Assembly (NCBI GenBank): GCA_965221185.1
Contig: OZ244866.1
Coordinates: 534,901-598,900 of the forward strand
From: Candidatus Aldehydirespirator sp.
GTDB lineage: Bacteria; Actinomycetota; Acidimicrobiia; Acidimicrobiales; Aldehydirespiratoraceae
DNA: 64,000 nt
Reading direction: 5' to 3'
Part shown: positions 5,920-32,470 of the stretch, piece by piece
Layout of the letters: each line of letters opens with the position of its first letter
How positions within the stretch are numbered: position 1 is the first letter of the stretch
Made by a program: the position numbers and the translations under genes
Notes under the pieces: model-generated
What the model was told of the DNA's origin: nothing
What the model saw: the letters and a program-made list of their open reading frames with translations, nothing else
Databases searched by the model: none

Positions 5920-7011
5920 TCATCGGCTCCTCCTTCCCACTTTGTCGGCCACCAGGATCAACAGCACGAACAGGGCCTGGATCACGATGGTCAGCACCCG
6001 GGGCACCTGTTGGGTGCGCTGGATCACGTCGCCCCCGAGGGTTAGCGCCCCGATCAGCACCGCGGCCACCAGCACCCCGACGGGGCGCATGCGGGCGACG
6101 AGGGCGACGATTATGGCGGTGAATCCGAAGCCCGGAGAGATGTTGCCGGTCAGCCTCGACTCCGGCCCCATCACCTGCAGGATCCCGGCCATCCCGGCGA
6201 ATGCTCCCGAGACGACCATCACCGTGGTGATGAGCCGTCCGGTCCGCACCCCGGCGGCCTCGGTGGCGTCGCGATTCAGCCCCATCATCCGAGTGTGGAA
6301 CCCGAACGGGGTCCGCCTCATGACGTAGGCCACGACCGGGATCAGCCCCAGCCCGATCAGCAGTCCGATGTGGACTCGAAAACCCGGCACGTCGGGCAGG
6401 CGGGCCGCGTCGGGAAGCGTCTCGGACACCGGCTGGAAGCCGACTGGGTCTCGCAGCGGCTTGCGGATCGTGTACTCGAGGGTCCGCAGAGCAACGTAGT
6501 TCAACAGCAGCGAGGAGATGACCTCGTTCACGCTCCAGCGGGCCCGCAGGAAGCCGGCCACCCAGCCCCAAGCCCCCCCGGCGGCCGCGCCGACCAGACA
6601 TGCGGCCGGGATCATGACCGCACGGGTGCTGATCGGGGCATAGATGGCGAAGGCGCCGCCGGCCAGGGCCCCCATCAGGAGCTGGCCCTCGGCTCCGATG
6701 TTCCACACCCGAGCCCGGAACGCCACGGCCAGGCCGAGCCCGATCAACAACAGGGGAGCGGTCTCCACCAGCACGAGGCTGAAGCCGAAGCGCGAGCCGA
6801 AGGTGCCGCTGAACATGTCGGCGTAGGCCTGGAGGGGGTTGGCACCGGAAAGGGCCAGCAGGACCCCGCCTAGCACGAACGCGGTGGCGACCGCAGCTGC
6901 CGACAGTCCCAGGGAGCTGAGTCGGGAACTCCAGCGCGCGACGGTGCTGGCCGCGTCGTGCCCGCGGTCCGGCTGGCCCAAGGGATCCACAGGGTTGACT
7001 TGAGCGGTCAC
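5920..7011 (-). CDS. ABC transporter permease (BMP/nucleoside-type, first permease)
   Basis: C-terminal 364 codons of ORF 5920..7620. The GTG start at 7011-7009 overlaps the ATPase stop (GTGA). The sequence from VTAQVNPVD.. onward is hydrophobic and polytopic. Confidence 0.7.
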   Translation of the reverse strand: MTAQVNPVDPLGQPDRGHDAASTVARWSSRLSSLGLSAAAVATAFVLGGVLLALSGANPLQAYADMFSGTFGSRFGFSLVLVETAPLLLIGLGLAVAFRARVWNIGAEGQLLMGALAGGAFAIYAPISTRAVMIPAACLVGAAAGGAWGWVAGFLRARWSVNEVISSLLLNYVALRTLEYTIRKPLRDPVGFQPVSETLPDAARLPDVPGFRVHIGLLIGLGLIPVVAYVMRRTPFGFHTRMMGLNRDATEAAGVRTGRLITTVMVVSGAFAGMAGILQVMGPESRLTGNISPGFGFTAIIVALVARMRPVGVLVAAVLIGALTLGGDVIQRTQQVPRVLTIVIQALFVLLILVADKVGRRSR

Positions 7012-8633
7012 CGCGTCGCAGCCCTCTCGGCTCGGCTGCCCGCTCCGCCCATCGCCATGCCGATCGCCTCCCTGTCCAGTGGAGTCTCGACGAGCCGGCC
7101 TCGGTAGATCACGAAACACCGGTCGGACAGGGCCGTGACCTCGTTGAGGTCCGTGGTGATCAACAGCACCGCGACCCCCGCATCGCGTTGATTCCTGATC
7201 TGGTTCCACACGAATTCGATGGCCCCGACGTCCAGCCCTCTGGTGGGCTGAGCGGCGATCAGGAGCTGCAGGTCGGTGCCGAGGGCGCGGGCCAGCACGA
7301 CCTTCTGCGCGTTCCCCCCCGACAGCGTGGAGGCAGGGGCCGACGGGCTTCGCACCGCGATGGAGAACCGTCCCACCAGGTCGGCGCCCCGAGCGGCCAC
7401 CGCCCTGGGGTCGATCCAGAGCCGGCGGCCGTACGGGGCCCTGTCGATGCGGTCGTAAACGAGGTTCTCGGCCACCGACAGCCCGCGGATCAGACCGCGG
7501 CGGTAGCGATCGGACGGGATGATGCCCACACCGGCGTCCAGCAGTTGCCGGGGAGTTGCATCGGTGACGTCGGCTTGGCCGAGGCGTATCCGTCCCGAGG
7601 CCGGCTGGCTCAGCCCGCACAGGACCGCCTCCAGTTCGGCCTGGCCGTTGCCCTCGACACCCGCGATGGTCACGATCTCGCAGGCTCGCACCTCCAGGCT
7701 CACGTCCACGAAGTCCCTGGCGTGCTCTCCGCTGGTTCCGGCCACCGATGTCGATGACAGATCCTCGAGCGTCAGCACGGCCGGACCCGCCGAGGCCGAG
7801 GCGGCCCTCGCATCGGCTTCCTCGACCTCGCCGACCTCGCTGAGCATTGTCACTTCCCGGCCCACCATCAGCCGGGCCAGCTCCAGCGGGCTGGTCACCT
7901 CCGCGGGCAGCGTGGCCACGTTGGCTCCGGCCCGCAGAACGGTTATCCGATCGGCCGCGGTCATCACCTCGTCGAGGTGGTGCGTGATCATCACGATGGC
8001 GGTGCCAGCAGACGCCATGGCCTGCAACTGCTCGATCAGATGGTCTATCTCCACCGGTGAGAGCGTGGCCGTCGGCTCGTCGAGGATCAGGATCCTCGCG
8101 CCCCGATACAGCGCCCGGAGAATCTCCACCCGCTGCTGCTCTCCCACCGAGAGGTCCCCGACCAGCGAGGCTGCCGAGACCGGCAGCCCGTAGCGCTCGC
8201 CCAGGTCCTCGATGGCGGAGGCCACCTCGGCCAGGTCGGGAAGCCTGATCCGGCGGCCCTGGCTGGCGCCCAAGATCACGTTCTCCGCCACTGACAGCCG
8301 CGGCACGAGCTGGAAGTGTTGGTGGACCATGCCGATGCCGGCCTCGATGGCATCGTGCGCGGATCGGAGGTGCACCCGCTCGCCGTCGATCTCAATGGTC
8401 CCCTCGTCGGGGCGCTCCAGTCCGTAGAGCAGGTTCATGAGCGTCGTCTTGCCCGCACCGTTCTCGCCCAATAGCGCGTGGATCTCGCCGAAGTACAGGT
8501 CGAAGTTGGCGCCGGCGACTGCGGTGACGGACCCGAACCGCTTGGTAATGCCGCGCATCGCGACCACCGGGCCCGAGCCGGACCGGCCCGAGCCGCGGCC
8601 GTCCGCCGGCCGGTCCTGGTCCGTGACCATCAC
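7008..8633 (-). CDS. ABC transporter ATP-binding protein with two fused ATPase domains
   Basis: Walker A GENGAGKTT, signature LSVGEQQRVEI and Walker B ILILDEPT. The second domain has LSGGNAQKVVLA and LLIAAQPTRGLD. Confidence 0.85.
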   Translation of the reverse strand: MMVTDQDRPADGRGSGRSGSGPVVAMRGITKRFGSVTAVAGANFDLYFGEIHALLGENGAGKTTLMNLLYGLERPDEGTIEIDGERVHLRSAHDAIEAGIGMVHQHFQLVPRLSVAENVILGASQGRRIRLPDLAEVASAIEDLGERYGLPVSAASLVGDLSVGEQQRVEILRALYRGARILILDEPTATLSPVEIDHLIEQLQAMASAGTAIVMITHHLDEVMTAADRITVLRAGANVATLPAEVTSPLELARLMVGREVTMLSEVGEVEEADARAASASAGPAVLTLEDLSSTSVAGTSGEHARDFVDVSLEVRACEIVTIAGVEGNGQAELEAVLCGLSQPASGRIRLGQADVTDATPRQLLDAGVGIIPSDRYRRGLIRGLSVAENLVYDRIDRAPYGRRLWIDPRAVAARGADLVGRFSIAVRSPSAPASTLSGGNAQKVVLARALGTDLQLLIAAQPTRGLDVGAIEFVWNQIRNQRDAGVAVLLITTDLNEVTALSDRCFVIYRGRLVETPLDREAIGMAMGGAGSRAERAATR

Positions 8634-9613
8634 GTCTCAGCCGGGATGACGCAGTAGGTCAGCCCCATATCGGACAGCCAGCGACGGTAGGCGATCGAGG
8701 TCTTGTCCGAGCGCACGGGCGTCTCGATCCGCGATCCCAGCGGCAGGCGCTTCGGCCTCTGGTTCTCGAGTATGGGCTTGTCCTGGCCGAAGATCAGTAG
8801 CTGGAAGCGCTTGAGCAGCCGGTCGTCGTTCTCGTCGTCGAGCATCGACAGCAGCATGTGGGCCCGCGTGGTCTCCTCGTCCATGGGCTGGCAGAAGATG
8901 GTGATGGCATCCATGCGGGACTCGTCGATGGGGCTCGACTTGAACAGGATGGCGCAGTAGGGGTGGGGCACCCGGTACACGTACCCCATGAGCATCCCGC
9001 CGTCGGCGTTGAGCGCCCCCAGCGGCTGGAAGAACTCGCAGCGGGTGGCGACTAGCTCCCGCCCGTCGTCGACCAGGTCGACGTCGTACTCCTTGACCTC
9101 GGTGAGGGGCTCGATACCCAGGTAGCCGGAGTGGACATAGGGGAAGTGGCCCATGTCGAGGAAGTTCTCCACCGCCCTCGGCGCCGATGTGTGCACCCCG
9201 ATGCTGCCGGCCCACACGTTGTGGCGGTCGGGCTCACCGAACTCCGGCAGGTCGAAGAGCTCGGCCTCCGGAGAACCCAGGCTTGTCCATATGTAACCGA
9301 AGCGGTTGATCGACGGCAGGGGCTCGCCCATTTCCGCGGGGGCGAATCGAGAGCCCGCAGGCAACTCCGGGATCGATCTCCAGGCATGGACCTCGCCGCC
9401 TGCGCTGACCCCGTACGAGACGGGCTCTTCGAGCAGTTGTGTCTCGTTGACGGCCCCGGGGGCCAGCTCGACGACGGCGCCGACGGGGTGCCACAGGTTC
9501 AGAGCGACCGGATCGGCGCACTTGGAGCGAGCGCGGATAGGTGGTGAACGCCTCGCGGTGGGGCGTTGTGTTTCCCGCTCTTGTTCGCTGCGCTCACGGG
9601 CCGCTCGGGCCAC
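8630..9613 (-). CDS. Oxygenase-like protein: VanA/PaO-type catalytic domain with a non-heme Fe motif but no Rieske cluster ligands; start uncertain
   Basis: The C-terminal domain has AVENFLDMGHFPYVH (ExxDxxHx4H-type mononuclear Fe site). The N-terminus NLWHPVGAVVEL..EVHAWRS..INRFGYIWTSLG lacks CxH..CxxH. The nearest in-frame canonical start with an SD is the GTG at 9613 (AAGGAG 7 nt upstream). The stop overlaps the ATPase start. Confidence 0.5.
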   Translation of the reverse strand: MARAARERSEQERETQRPTARRSPPIRARSKCADPVALNLWHPVGAVVELAPGAVNETQLLEEPVSYGVSAGGEVHAWRSIPELPAGSRFAPAEMGEPLPSINRFGYIWTSLGSPEAELFDLPEFGEPDRHNVWAGSIGVHTSAPRAVENFLDMGHFPYVHSGYLGIEPLTEVKEYDVDLVDDGRELVATRCEFFQPLGALNADGGMLMGYVYRVPHPYCAILFKSSPIDESRMDAITIFCQPMDEETTRAHMLLSMLDDENDDRLLKRFQLLIFGQDKPILENQRPKRLPLGSRIETPVRSDKTSIAYRRWLSDMGLTYCVIPAET

Positions 9614-26674: not shown

Positions 26675-26830
26675 CTGAATACGATAATTCCGATAAGATA
26701 AGTCGGGATTCAGGGAGGGTAGCGCACCCGCGGGCGCAATACAACACAAACCCGATCAGATTTATCGGGATTGATGGCCGGGCGGCACCACCTACCGGCG
26801 CTGCCTCATGGGCCGCCGGGTCTGAAATCG
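26675..26830 (-). promoter_or_regulatory. AT-rich control region upstream of the sirC-cobA-sulfite reductase operon
   Basis: All elements below are read on the minus strand. There is a CCCGAT-N7-ATCGGG hairpin followed by TTTGTGTTGT. AATCCCGA occurs twice and TTATC three times. A TATCGT box ends 6 nt before the ATG, and there is no SD. Confidence 0.35.
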
Positions 26831-29086: not shown

Positions 29087-29860
29087 ATGAGCGCGACCAT
29101 TGACGAGATCTGCCTCGTTGCGCTGGCTGAGGCCTTCCGGGGAGACGGCGAGCTGCTGTGCCATCCGATGGGTCCCTTCCCGGTGGCCGCGGGAAGGCTG
29201 GCGCGCGCCAGCTTCGAGCCCGACCTGATGCTCACCGACACCATCGCCTACGCGGTGGTCGGCACCCCGCCGCTGGGGGCGACCGTCCGTGTTCCCGGCG
29301 CGGCCGACGAGGCCCTGGTGGTCGAGGGCTACCTGCCGTTCCGCACGGTGTTCGACCAGATCTGGGCGGGTCGCCGCCATGTGGTTATGGGAGCCAGCCA
29401 GATCGACCGGCACGGCAACCAGAACTTCGCTGCCATCGGGGACTATCGGCGGCCCAAGGCCCAGCTCCTCGGTCTGCGGGGCGCGCCCGGGAACGTGATC
29501 AACCACACCACCAGCTACTGGATCCCCAACCAGGCTCGCACCTTCGTCGAGAGTGTGGACGTGGTGTCAGGGCCCGGCTATGACCGGGTAGCGGCGTTGC
29601 CCGAGCCCAGCGGACGGTTCCACGAGATACGCAGGGTCGTAACCGAGCTGGCCGCCTACGACTTCGAGACTCCCGATCGAACCATGCGCCTGCGATCCGT
29701 CCATCCCGGCGTCACCCTCGACGACATCCTCGCGGCCACCCCCTTCGAGTTGACCCTGCCCGACAATGTTCCAGCCAGCCGGCTCCCCACCGATGAGGAG
29801 CTCCACCTCATCCGCAACGTGATCGACCCCAACGGCATCCGCCAAGCCGAGTTCCGCTGA
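29087..29860 (+). CDS. ipdB: CoA-transferase subunit B (IpdB-like)
   Basis: 257 aa, paired with subunit A. It has GASQIDRHGNQN and LGLRGAPGN motifs. Confidence 0.65.
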   Translation: MSATIDEICLVALAEAFRGDGELLCHPMGPFPVAAGRLARASFEPDLMLTDTIAYAVVGTPPLGATVRVPGAADEALVVEGYLPFRTVFDQIWAGRRHVVMGASQIDRHGNQNFAAIGDYRRPKAQLLGLRGAPGNVINHTTSYWIPNQARTFVESVDVVSGPGYDRVAALPEPSGRFHEIRRVVTELAAYDFETPDRTMRLRSVHPGVTLDDILAATPFELTLPDNVPASRLPTDEELHLIRNVIDPNGIRQAEFR

Positions 29861-29894
29861 GCGCAGATCGAAACGGAAGGATACTGCAATCTAG

Positions 29895-29923
29895 TTGCCA
29901 TTCATACGGATTTATCGTAGACT
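29895..29923 (+). promoter_or_regulatory. Sigma-70/SigA-type promoter TTGCCA-N17-TAGACT, 7 nt upstream of the ATPase ATG (leaderless transcript predicted)
   Basis: Direct reading places the -35 at 29895-29900, a 17-nt spacer, the -10 at 29918-29923 and the ATG at 29931. There is no SD in between. Confidence 0.5.
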
Positions 29924-29930
29924 TGCTGCT

Positions 29931-31268
29931 ATGAGCGACAAAAACAAGGATAGTTCTGGCGTTAGCGCGCTCATATCGTTCACGGCGGAGAACGTGCGCT
30001 CCTACCGGGATGAGGTCCATTTCTCCCTTGAGGGAACGCGGCTGGCCGAGGAGGGTGTGATTCGCCACTTGCCCGTAGCGGGCAGGGCCAAGCCTGTGGC
30101 AGTTCTGCCCGCGGCCGGGATCTTCGGTGCCAATGCATCCGGCAAGTCGGCGCTCCTTAGAACTATGGCCGATATGCGCGACGTCGTGACGGGTTCGTTC
30201 CGTCGGGGCCATCGTGGAACGCGTCTACGTCGTCGGCCCTTCGTGCTCGACCCGGAGATGGCCGAGAGCCCGTCACGTTTCGAGATCGACTTAATCCTCC
30301 GAGGCGTCCGGTGGCGATATGGCTTCGCGATCGACGATTCGCGGGTGCTGAGAGAATACGCCTATCACGCTCCTCGCGGGCGCCCCGCGCTGGTGTTTCG
30401 TCGGGACGGCGATGACCTGGTGTTCGGGCCTCGGTTCCGCTCCTCGGGTCGTGCTCTGAAGAAGCTTCTGCGCGAGAATGCCTTGGTGTTGTCGGTAGCT
30501 GGTGCGGCCGGGGACGATTGGTTACACCCGCTCTTTTCTTGGTTCTCGGATAATCTCTGGCTAGCCGAGTCCGATAACCGCGACATTCGCACTACCTACA
30601 CGGGCCATCTCGTACAGTCAGACGAGTCGAGGGTCCGTGTCTTGGGCATGTTGAAGGCCGCAGACCTAGGGATAGAGGATGTGGAAATGGTCTCCTTGGA
30701 TCCTGAGGTCAAGGAACGCGTCGAGCGCGCCACACGGATTCTGCGTGGCATGGAAGACGACTCGGCTGGAGACGAAGAGTTCTTCATTCCTGACCTGATT
30801 GAACTCATGCATTCAACATCCCACGGGAATGTTGTAGTCGATCGCAATGATGAGTCTCAAGGCACGATGGTATGGGTTAGTCTCGTTGGTCCCGTGTTGG
30901 ATGCTTTGGATGAAGGAGAGACATTGCTGGTAGACGAACTTGACACTAGCCTCCATCCTCATCTTGTTCAACGCATAATTGATCTCTTTCAGAACGAGAC
31001 TACAAATCCGCACTGTGCTCAAATCATCTTCAATTCGCATGACACAAGTATTCTCGGCAATAGTGATGAACGATTCCTAAGCAGAGATCAGATTTGGTTC
31101 ACAGAGAAGGGTCTTGACGGTGCTTCGGTCCTGTACCCCCTATCGGACTTCAAGACCAGACGTGACGAAGCACTTGAAAGACGGTACCTCAATGGGCGTT
31201 ACGGAGGAATACCGGTACTTGATCACCTTGAATTCGAGCATGCTCTTGAGTCAAGCGTCTACAACTGA
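29931..31268 (+). CDS. ABC/SMC-like ATPase of the AAA_15/AAA_21 class (AbiLi / RloA / AriA-like)
   Basis: Walker A GANASGKS (30126-30149), signature-like ESQGT, Walker B LLVDELDTSLHP and H-loop FNSHD. There is a long insertion between the two ATPase lobes. The ATG at 29931 is preferred over the track TTG at 29895 because of the promoter geometry. Confidence 0.8.
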   Translation: MSDKNKDSSGVSALISFTAENVRSYRDEVHFSLEGTRLAEEGVIRHLPVAGRAKPVAVLPAAGIFGANASGKSALLRTMADMRDVVTGSFRRGHRGTRLRRRPFVLDPEMAESPSRFEIDLILRGVRWRYGFAIDDSRVLREYAYHAPRGRPALVFRRDGDDLVFGPRFRSSGRALKKLLRENALVLSVAGAAGDDWLHPLFSWFSDNLWLAESDNRDIRTTYTGHLVQSDESRVRVLGMLKAADLGIEDVEMVSLDPEVKERVERATRILRGMEDDSAGDEEFFIPDLIELMHSTSHGNVVVDRNDESQGTMVWVSLVGPVLDALDEGETLLVDELDTSLHPHLVQRIIDLFQNETTNPHCAQIIFNSHDTSILGNSDERFLSRDQIWFTEKGLDGASVLYPLSDFKTRRDEALERRYLNGRYGGIPVLDHLEFEHALESSVYN

Positions 31269-31879
31269 TGGCCAGATCAACGGCACGGAAGCCTAAGGGC
31301 CTCAATCAAAGAAAGGTTATTCTAGTACTTACTGAAGGCACCGTTACCGAACGTCAGTACTTAAAATATATGCAGAAGGTGGCGCCGGGAAGCTGCCGTG
31401 CGCATCTAAAGCTCGGGTCAGCAGAATCTGACCCTATCAAGCTTGTGAACAAGGCTGTTCGTCAATTGGCATATGACAAGCGTCGGAAGGACGGACGCAC
31501 CTTCGATGAGATATGGTGCGTCTGTGATTATGATGCCCATTTCAAACACCCTTATGATTTGTTGACGCTATTGAATCATGCATCTAGTCGCGACATCAAT
31601 GTTGCAGTCTCCAATCCCTGTTTCGAGTTATGGCTAGTACTTCATTATCAAGCTGTAACTGGCACAGTTCACCGACATGCCATACAAAGGATTGCGGATA
31701 AGCTGAAACTTCTTAACGACAAGAGAATTCGAGACGTTACCCTGTCTAGACTGCCAAGGGACTATGCGGTAGCAAGACAACACGCCAAGGCACTAAGGGT
31801 TCGACATCAACACAATGGCAATCATGAAACATCTAACCCGAGTACGGCTGTTTGGGAACTTGTAGACGAGATCCGGTAG
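31268..31879 (+). CDS. RloB-like (Toprim-related) protein, AbiLii-like putative nuclease effector
   Basis: VILVLTEGTVTERQYL, IWCVCDYDAH and VAVSNPCFELWLVLHY match the RloB family signature. The start overlaps the ATPase stop (TGATG). Confidence 0.8.
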   Translation: MARSTARKPKGLNQRKVILVLTEGTVTERQYLKYMQKVAPGSCRAHLKLGSAESDPIKLVNKAVRQLAYDKRRKDGRTFDEIWCVCDYDAHFKHPYDLLTLLNHASSRDINVAVSNPCFELWLVLHYQAVTGTVHRHAIQRIADKLKLLNDKRIRDVTLSRLPRDYAVARQHAKALRVRHQHNGNHETSNPSTAVWELVDEIR

Positions 31880-31902
31880 CAGAATAGGTAACCCTATTTC
31901 TG
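31880..31902 (+). terminator. Hairpin CAGAATAGG-TAAC-CCTATTTCTG immediately after the rloB-like stop
   Basis: Direct reading shows a 9-bp stem with one bulged base and a 4-nt loop. There is no clear U-tract. Confidence 0.4.
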
Positions 31903-31924
31903 ATCAAGGGCGAGCTGACCGTGG

Positions 31925-32470
31925 GTGACGATGATGGGTGAGCGGCCGGTGGTGTACATGGTGTGCACTGGCAACGCGGCCCGCTCGCCGATGGCGGCGG
32001 CCATGCTGCGGGACCTCGACGCCGGCAGCAGGATCGACGTTCGCAGCGCGGGTGTCCTCGCGCTCGAGGGCCACCCCATGAGCGTCCGCACCCGTACAGC
32101 CTTGGCTCGACACGGGCTCGTCGATCACTCCCACCGATCCCGGCAGTTCCGCGCTAAGGATGCTGTCGAAGCCGACCTGGTGGTGGTCATGGAACCGCTG
32201 CACCTGCACTGGATGCGGCGAAATCTCCCTGAAGCGGCGTCCATCACCGGGTCGCTGCGGCGGCTGGCGCGGGATCTGGCCCCACCGCCGGGCGATTCCC
32301 ATGCCAACGATCTGGGCACCAGGGTCCGGGCTCTCAAACTTGGCGAGCTAACGCCCGAGCCATGGGAGGAGGTGGTCGATCCGGGCGCGGGCGAGCAGGA
32401 CGACTTCGACCGCTGCTCCGACGAGTTGCGCATGCTGGTGACCGAATTGCATCGACGCCTGGGACGATGA
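31925..32470 (+). CDS. Low-molecular-weight protein-tyrosine phosphatase / ArsC-type phosphatase family
   Basis: P-loop VCTGNAARS (CX5R-S) near the N-terminus, and an Asp in the ..VVDPGAGEQDDF region. Confidence 0.7.
   Translation: MTMMGERPVVYMVCTGNAARSPMAAAMLRDLDAGSRIDVRSAGVLALEGHPMSVRTRTALARHGLVDHSHRSRQFRAKDAVEADLVVVMEPLHLHWMRRNLPEAASITGSLRRLARDLAPPPGDSHANDLGTRVRALKLGELTPEPWEEVVDPGAGEQDDFDRCSDELRMLVTELHRRLGR

Follow-up and report, generated by a model that had tools for sequence, protein, structure and literature searches.

The stretch of DNA considered here (the window) comprises 64,000 nucleotides of a 'Candidatus Aldehydirespirator' sp. contig (OZ244866.1, positions 534,901 to 598,900), and our subject is a short islet of low GC content within it, at 29861-31924, that encodes an AbiL-type pair of proteins: an ATPase (AbiLi) and an RloB-family effector (AbiLii). 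Two open reading frames (ORFs) on the same strand fill the 2,064 bp between the stop codon of an ipdB-like gene (29860) and the start codon of a low-molecular-weight (LMW) phosphatase gene (31925). Both frames are intact and meet in the sequence TGATG, much as a first-pass annotation of the window had described them. The stop codon of abiLi and the start codon of abiLii share one base in this motif, an overlap of 1 nt that could allow translational coupling of the two genes. The genes and their principal residues are as follows.

29931..31268, plus strand: abiLi, ABC/Rad50-like ATPase of 445 aa (Pfam AAA_21, PADLOC AbiLi, motifs, AlphaFold2/Foldseek)
30126-30149, plus strand: Walker A GANASGKS of abiLi, with lysine K72
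30852-30866, plus strand: signature ESQGT of abiLi
30933-30938, plus strand: Walker B D335/E336 of abiLi
31038-31040, plus strand: H-loop H370 of abiLi
31268..31879, plus strand: abiLii, RloB-family Toprim-like putative nuclease of 203 aa (Pfam RloB, PADLOC AbiLii)
31334-31336, plus strand: E23 of abiLii
31526-31528, plus strand: D87 of abiLii
31532-31534, plus strand: D89 of abiLii

The islet is set apart from its surroundings by base composition. GC content drops from about 0.69 to 0.45-0.50 on entering it and averages 53% over its length, compared with 69% in the flanks and about 69% in the window. When the 64 kb are divided into 1-kb bins, GC ranges from 0.63 to 0.75, and the only exceptions (0.58 and 0.49) both fall on the islet, which is also the sole stretch of more than 500 nt in the window that combines atypical GC with the lack of an ORF of high GC content at third codon positions (GC3). 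Host genes have GC3 values of 0.80-0.94, against 0.61 for abiLi and 0.45 for abiLii. Hand counts on five 60-nt lines had first drawn attention to this collapse; recomputed, the lines give 0.70, 0.63, 0.45, 0.37 and 0.40, so that the last four counts were accurate and the first, given as 0.75, was too high.

Despite this foreign composition, none of the usual hallmarks of a mobile element accompanies the islet, as the first-pass annotation had also reported. The 64-kb window contains no tRNA gene and no Rfam match, no integrase, transposase or recombinase domain occurs among the neighbours within ~10 kb, and a search for flanking direct or inverted repeats returned nothing convincing, the ends of the islet sharing only the 4-nt sequence TCCG. 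An integrative mobile island was accordingly ruled out. The neighbouring genes within ~10 kb are metabolic or housekeeping in nature and include those for sulfite reductase, sirohaem synthase, short-chain dehydrogenases/reductases, a CoA-transferase, AzlCD, MDMPI, a DEAD helicase and a major facilitator superfamily transporter.

The assignment of the first protein to the AAA_21-type ATPases holds under profile searches. AbiLi matches Pfam AAA_21 with an E value of 2e-30 (107 bits, cut-off 27), and the AbiLi model of PADLOC comes first among 47 models (E 4.3e-87); Pfam AAA_15, at 26.6 bits, stays under its cut-off of 32.1. The frame is open from a TTG at 29895 (457 aa), and its start is the ATG at 29931 (445 aa), because the homologue alignment, the gene calls on identical contigs and a promoter whose -35 box incorporates the upstream TTG all agree on that codon. 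Across 51 homologues G66, N68-K72, E308, S309, G311, T312, D335, E336 and His370 are invariant. An AlphaFold2 (AF2) model of AbiLi, with a predicted local distance difference test score (pLDDT) of 79.6, finds the heads of Rad50, SMC, JetC, RecF and PtuA as its top Foldseek matches (E 2e-9 to 1e-6). The Walker A, signature, Walker B and H-loop elements of an OLD-like ATP-binding cassette (ABC) ATPase head are thus present and invariant, on a Rad50/SMC/PtuA fold.

The second protein belongs with equal clarity to the RloB family. Pfam RloB (PF13707) matches it at E 1.4e-35 (124 bits, cut-off 31.5), and AbiLii is the sole PADLOC model that it matches (E 5.7e-25). Invariant residues in 47 RloB homologues include E23, G24, T27, E28, D80, E81, D87 and D89, together with S115, N116, E120, H126, K152 and H180. 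All of the motifs originally quoted for the pair were recovered, namely GANASGKS, ESQGT, LLVDELDTSLHP and FNSHD in the ATPase and VILVLTEGTVTERQYL, IWCVCDYDAH and VAVSNPCFELWLVLHY in the effector; PHROG families of unknown function match both proteins. Toprim domains carry a glutamate after strand 1 and a DxD motif after strand 3. In the AF2 model of AbiLii (pLDDT 90.5), strands at residues 17-22, 46-49, 81-87 and 111-116 alternate with helices, E23 follows immediately upon strand 1, and D87xD89 closes strand 3. The predicted layout is therefore that expected of a Toprim domain, and a Toprim nature is suggested by motifs, strand order and literature; the EGxxTE motif, moreover, resembles LLVEGKTE in the C-terminal region of P2 Old. 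The Toprim families of Pfam gave no match to AbiLii even at E values up to 10.

Taken together, the adjacency of the two best PADLOC models, AbiLi and AbiLii, on one strand and with a 1-nt overlap agrees with the AbiLi/AbiLii module originally proposed. The pair fits the sequence-based definition of AbiL (PADLOC: AbiLi plus AbiLii), a kind of system that is already known, and so represents no new one. In the literature, published trees included, AbiL is grouped with defence systems in which a TOPRIM nuclease is paired with an ABC ATPase of the AAA15/21 type (PMC11464382; PMC12409363). The AbiL of Lactococcus lactis (AbiLi/AbiLii, pND861), described in 1999, has the same ATPase-then-RloB order and the same Pfam families as the islet (Deng et al., 1999, as cited in PMC10440598 and PMC13064643). 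The islet differs from it in lying on a high-GC Acidimicrobiia chromosome rather than on a low-GC Firmicutes plasmid, in being known from its genes alone, and in that its subfamily possesses a conserved, apparently leaderless promoter of its own.

Parallels to PARIS, split-OLD and Gabija systems had also been drawn, and these stand as analogies and fail as memberships, since neither AriB/DUF4435 nor Toprim_Old nor GajB is matched. PARIS likewise splits an ABC ATPase from a small effector with acidic motifs, and its generic AAA_21-type AriA model matches the islet ATPase at 1e-30; the islet effector, however, is an RloB protein (PF13707) and not AriB/DUF4435, and neither PADLOC nor Pfam yields a match of the 203-aa protein to the latter. 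AbiLii has been reported to superpose poorly on AriB (PMC13064643), and it is for PARIS only that the trigger (Ocr-like proteins) and the target (tRNA-Lys) are known. P2 Old and related OLD nucleases, as well as GajA, share with the islet an ABC ATPase, what would be a Toprim-type catalytic logic, and both EGxxE-type and DxD motifs; their domains are fused in one polypeptide, whereas those of the islet lie on separate proteins, and GajA further requires the GajB helicase. Membership in Gabija was rejected, as the matches to GajA models are confined to ATPase residues ~298-421 (E ~1e-5) and no helicase gene adjoins the pair. Septu was rejected as well: PtuA models match weakly and PtuA structures fit the ATPase fold, yet the partner is RloB and not HNH.

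RloA/RloB of Campylobacter and the NetFlax pairs resemble the islet in joining an RloB-family effector to an AAA_21-type partner. Since the RloB family was named from hsd-linked Campylobacter genes (PMC10440598; PMC13064643), and since RecF and Rad50 are among the structures matched by the ATPase model, the pair might be imagined to be an RloA/RloB accessory of a type I restriction-modification (R-M) locus, or else a housekeeping ABC-ATPase/Toprim repair pair akin to RecF/RecR. We regard this as highly improbable. Unlike the Campylobacter genes, the islet does not lie within a type I R-M locus; no hsd gene, methylase or restriction domain is found among the neighbours within ~10 kb, on which grounds an R-M-linked RloAB system was discarded as a class, and a locus so patchy in sister species and so foreign in composition is unlike a repair gene.

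That patchiness becomes apparent when the junction between the ipdB-like and phosphatase genes is followed through related genomes. The closest relatives of the ipdB-like protein, at 80-96% identity, occur in metagenome-assembled genomes (MAGs) of 'Candidatus Aldehydirespirator' and other Acidimicrobiales. The host thus represents an Acidimicrobiia MAG lineage and not a classical actinomycete; the name 'Ca. Aldehydirespirator' appears in the one paper found, a comparative-genomics study of sponge-associated Actinobacteriota. The first-pass annotation had named no characterised example in a high-GC actinobacterial host; such a host is not unusual, because homologues are common in Actinomycetota (e.g., at 48% in Nonomuraea, and on Streptomyces and Rhodococcus plasmids).

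Occupancy of the junction was tallied in 28 informative close relatives, with one genome per species; these, and additional contigs, are cited below by L numbers. The junction is empty (14-57 bp) in 14 of the 28 sister species, is occupied by a short insert (105-628 bp) in seven, and carries an AbiL pair in the remaining seven (L005, L006, L011, L013, L018, L020, L067), so that the pair does not qualify as a core locus with the GC content of the host. Metagenome contigs add further occupied sites (L081, L082, L083, L088, L089, L091, L092). Occupied junctions are of near-equal length (2,055-2,080 bp), with a GC content of 0.53-0.63 against 0.68-0.72 for the host. The AbiL pairs of the slot nevertheless form three or more allele groups, and from one group to another the ATPases are 52-61% and the RloB proteins 36-62% identical; this distance between ATPases of different groups is about that from the window ATPase to proteins of other phyla (e.g., 59% to an Acidobacteria protein). 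On a rough neighbour-joining tree of the left flank, built from a gappy 3.3-kb alignment, noisy and used solely for this purpose, the states of occupancy are interspersed. The ipdB|LMW-phosphatase junction is therefore a variable slot in 'Ca. Aldehydirespirator'-like Acidimicrobiales, in which AbiL cassettes that have their promoter and end points in common have been lost, replaced and recombined. The view of the islet as a naked cassette inserted into a metabolic neighbourhood survives insofar as no mobility gene lies nearby; rather than a one-off insertion, however, the islet is an allele of a slot that has been filled repeatedly and undergoes recombination.

Pangenomes of Escherichia coli, Pseudomonas and Vibrio are known to contain defence hotspots between conserved core genes. 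The slot is like them in being a fixed junction of two core genes at which close relatives have either nothing or other contents, and in lacking an integrase, with exchange apparently by recombination in the flanks. It differs in that the same type of system, as divergent alleles of near-equal length, recurs in seven of the 14 sister genomes whose slot is filled, rather than a mix of unrelated systems.

Several additional occupants and neighbours of the slot were observed. L029 holds an 823-aa ORF resembling a low-complexity membrane protein (6756-9227), and the closest relative, L001, a very acidic ORF of 114 aa (7010-7354); in L006 the AbiL pair is accompanied by a 406-aa ORF that contains GNSGGP, a motif like that of serine proteases (6980-8200, minus strand). 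A nucleotidyltransferase/HepT toxin-antitoxin pair lies 3 kb upstream of the slot in L083 (1-550). Downstream, a second, diverged AzlC/AzlD pair follows the first in L001 (9266-10188), L018 (5301-6235) and L082 (8768-9765) and is missing from the window, which constitutes further variation of gene content near the slot. Two contigs bear relatives of the cassette: in L097 (745-9341) a pair of this AbiL subfamily occupies a different site, where its neighbours are of defence type (N6_N4 methylase-HNH, PhdYeFM antitoxin, KAP NTPase), and L095 (4001-7960) has an AbiLi without a called RloB, adjoining an AlbA_2/HATPase gene.

The frequency of empty sites bears upon the notion that the cassette is a selfish toxin-antitoxin addiction module, in which RloB is the toxin, the ATPase the antitoxin and loss lethal, with no net role against phages. 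Pairs of AAA and TOPRIM_OLD/RloB proteins do occur in the NetFlax network, some of them validated as toxin-antitoxin systems (PMC10440598), AbiLii homologues are toxic (PMC3985639), and no other defence genes surround the islet in the window. Half of the sister species, however, have nothing in the slot, and loss of the cassette is therefore readily tolerated. Lactococcal AbiL protects against phages (PMC13064643), and the cassette of L097 adjoins genes of defence type (methylase-HNH, PhdYeFM, KAP NTPase). Toxin-antitoxin behaviour is, in any case, compatible with defence, as PARIS illustrates. We accordingly judge pure addiction unlikely.

Although the alleles of the slot differ widely in their proteins, they share a distinctive sequence at the upstream end of the cassette, which in the window is organized as follows.

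29861..29930, plus strand: left junction and promoter (promoter scan, TTGCCA-17-TAGACT)
29895-29900, plus strand: -35 box TTGCCA
29906-29920, plus strand: palindrome-like core ACGGATTTATCGTAG
29918-29923, plus strand: -10 box TAGACT, with the ATG 7 nt further on

Every AbiLi at the slot is preceded by TTGCNA, a 17-nt spacer with a palindrome-like core, a TAGAAT-like box and, 7 nt on, the ATG; the core is best formed in L006 and L018, where it reads CTACGGAATTTCCGTAG. This architecture could be aligned in 10 slot alleles and in two cassettes of this subfamily that lie elsewhere in their genomes (among these copies, window 29895-29933; L006 9359, L018 1562, L013 6831, L067 6825, L020 6823, L082 4978, L095 ~3960, L096 ~3925). 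A degenerate 16-mer of the core occurs 13 times in the 1.19 Mb searched, each time directly upstream of an AbiLi start, and the promoter persists even between alleles with no more than 52-61% identity in the ATPase. Because the -10 box stands only 7 nt before the ATG, the arrangement suggests that the abiLi mRNA is leaderless, and the palindrome suggests a possible operator. The window holds a sole other match to the palindrome pattern, TCGGAATTATCGTAT at 26679-26693 on the minus strand, with 2 mismatches; it is probably due to chance, as 1 of 100 shuffles gave two matches.

Comparison of closely related alleles indicates that the cassette is maintained by selection and exchanged between hosts. 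Between the window and L083, L081 and L088, the ATPase gene is 92-100% identical at the nucleotide level, compared with 77-95% for ipdB and 65-85% for the phosphatase gene; the window allele is thus more conserved between species than its flanks, at 92-100% for the cassette against 76-95% for the flanking sequence. The ratio of nonsynonymous to synonymous substitution rates (dN/dS) is 0.15-0.23 for the ATPase (0.15-0.18 against L081 and L083) and 0.36-0.56 for RloB, and both genes are under purifying selection. These values speak against the view that the islet was acquired horizontally, has lost its function and is now undergoing decay where it stands. One might be led to such a conclusion by GC and GC3 values far under those of the host, by the frequent loss of the cassette in relatives, and by apparent frameshifts in the AbiLi of L005 (~7690) and the RloB of L011 (8429-8611). 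Yet in the window both frames are intact and retain all residues invariant in their families, dN/dS is well under 1 in abiLi and abiLii alike, the promoter is conserved, and an identical protein is present in two independent assemblies, all of which renders decay very unlikely.

The two genes have not shared a single history. Synonymous divergence (dS) is discordant between abiLi and abiLii, at 0.125 vs 0.242 for the window and L081 and 0.045 vs 0.465 for L006 and L018, which implicates recombination rather than faster evolution alone. Within the allele group of the window, the ATPase stays similar while RloB diverges, as is seen in the amino acid identities to the window proteins.

L083: ATPase 98%, RloB 90%
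L081: ATPase 96%, RloB 83%
L088: ATPase 96%, RloB 68%
L090: ATPase 90% (C-terminal 301 aa only), RloB 62%
L082: ATPase 75%, RloB 60%

In one instance the break could be placed within the effector gene itself.

31500..31560, plus strand: recombination breakpoint zone inside abiLii, just past the DxD motif (comparison with L088)

Nucleotide identity between the window and L088 is 83-98% up to ~31,560 and 57-70% from there to the abiLii stop; correspondingly, with the ATPases at 96%, the RloB proteins are 88% identical over residues 1-95 and 50% over residues 96-203. The alignments thus place recombination breakpoints between the genes and inside RloB, and the L088 break would mean that the C-terminal helical half of the effector was exchanged separately. 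The region beside the slot likewise has a mosaic history, the phosphatase gene (31925-32470) being far more diverged between close relatives (65-85% at the nucleotide level; L083, L081, L001, L067) than ipdA, which lies on the opposite side and is 94-99% identical (L083, L001, L067).

A change of composition is also visible within abiLi.

~30830, plus strand: GC3 step inside abiLi, near codon 300 (GC3 per 50 codons)

GC3 is 0.62-0.74 upstream of about codon 300 and 0.40-0.51 downstream, remaining low through abiLii, and L005 and L081 show the same gradient. A chimeric origin of abiLi from two alleles was considered and rejected, the halves being about equally distant from 120 homologues (means of 60% for the N-terminal and 56% for the C-terminal half); no donor was found for the step because the two halves differ little in identity to other alleles.

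The downstream end of the cassette offers a glimpse of how the slot may have been emptied.

31880..31924, plus strand: right junction, low-GC 45-nt spacer from the abiLii stop to the phosphatase start (junction comparison)

This 45-nt end belongs to the allele group of the window alone and is without the GGTTCAGCCGC...GGCGGCGG hairpin of other alleles and of empty sites; no terminator-like site was found at 31880..31924. In five alleles (L011, L013, L018, L020, L067), RloB ends in ...CCGG TCG TAG, and GGTTCAGCCGC..GGCGGCGG comes next. At the empty sites of one class (L012, L014, L016, L022, L024, L027) it is ipdB that ends in ...TTCCGG TCG TAG, followed by the same GGTTCAGCCGC sequence, whereas ipdB ends in TTCCGC TAG or TGA at occupied sites; the window counterparts of these ends are 29852-29863 and 31868-31882. 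As the ending 'R-S-stop' is within the normal range of RloB C-termini, the simplest reading is that such empty sites arose by deletion of the cassette between TCCG microhomologies, a direction of change to which the compared ends would point. Short inserts are present in L023 and L073, and in the former the 3' end of ipdB is duplicated.

Considering these observations together, we deem it likely that the islet is a bicistronic AbiL-type abortive-infection or toxin-antitoxin-like defence operon and one allele of a variable exchange slot. By analogy with PARIS, P2 Old and published AbiL data, an oligomer of the AbiLi ATPase would keep the RloB nuclease inactive while sensing infection; a phage cue, with ATP binding or hydrolysis, would then release or open the nuclease, which, once freed, may cleave nucleic acid and halt phage production at the cost of the cell. 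The weakest step is the target, for which we can offer only a guess: we give host tRNA or another RNA an even chance, with DNA a less probable candidate. Published precedents include three pairs with AAA antitoxins, two of them with TOPRIM_OLD toxins, in which the toxin is neutralised by the AAA protein (PMC10440598), the tRNase activity of AriB in PARIS (PMC11464382) and that of P2 Old (2026 preprint). Lactococcal AbiL acts after phage transcription, and a 2026 review leaves undecided whether the mode of action of PARIS extends to AbiL, RloAB and comparable pairs (PMC13064643).

A number of points weigh against this interpretation. In E. coli the AbiLii of Fusobacterium nucleatum proved toxic, and its AbiLi, supplied in trans, failed to neutralise it in the sole published test (PMC3985639); sequestration is thus not an established model for AbiL. 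For the host, which belongs to an uncultured MAG lineage, roles in defence, toxicity and nucleic acid cleavage are predictions from gene content. The RloB/Toprim-like signature that had been proposed stands as regards the RloB family and the E23/DxD motifs; a Toprim fold is not confirmed by structure or profile comparison. Foldseek against the PDB returned generic alpha/beta folds only (best E 1.5e-3, TM score ~0.3) and, against BFVD, nothing but an 'RloB-like protein' of a phage. When the RloB alignment was compared by hhalign with P2 Old, as a single sequence or a 3-sequence alignment, the probability was 0.1, and a profile search of PDB sequences with RloB produced no match. The frameshifts of L005 and L011 could be decay or could be indel errors in long-read MAGs, and the pattern of a conserved sensor and a variable effector is an observation to which we assign no cause.

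A more specific elaboration is possible, and we put it forward tentatively, as a proposal that may well prove wrong. The junction would be a dedicated slot for the exchange of AbiL cassettes, in which a common promoter/operator at one end and an ipdB-like 3' end at the other permit loss and replacement without scars; residues ~96-203 of RloB, its C-terminal helical half, would be a swappable specificity module, while the N-terminal, catalytic half would stay with the ATPase. If this is true, the allele series (ATPase 96-98%, C-terminal half of RloB 50-89%) would locate the specificity for target or inhibitor.

AbiL is already called by standard defence finders, and what is new here is the series of alleles in one slot, the breakpoint inside the effector gene and the conserved promoter. 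The AbiL family is present, and exchanged, in uncultured Acidimicrobiia with sponge-associated relatives. The conserved, palindromic and apparently leaderless promoter is a candidate regulatory element of this AbiL subfamily. Finally, the alleles of the slot constitute a natural set in which a near-constant ATPase is combined with an effector replaced mostly in its C-terminal half, and which is well suited to the construction of specificity chimeras.

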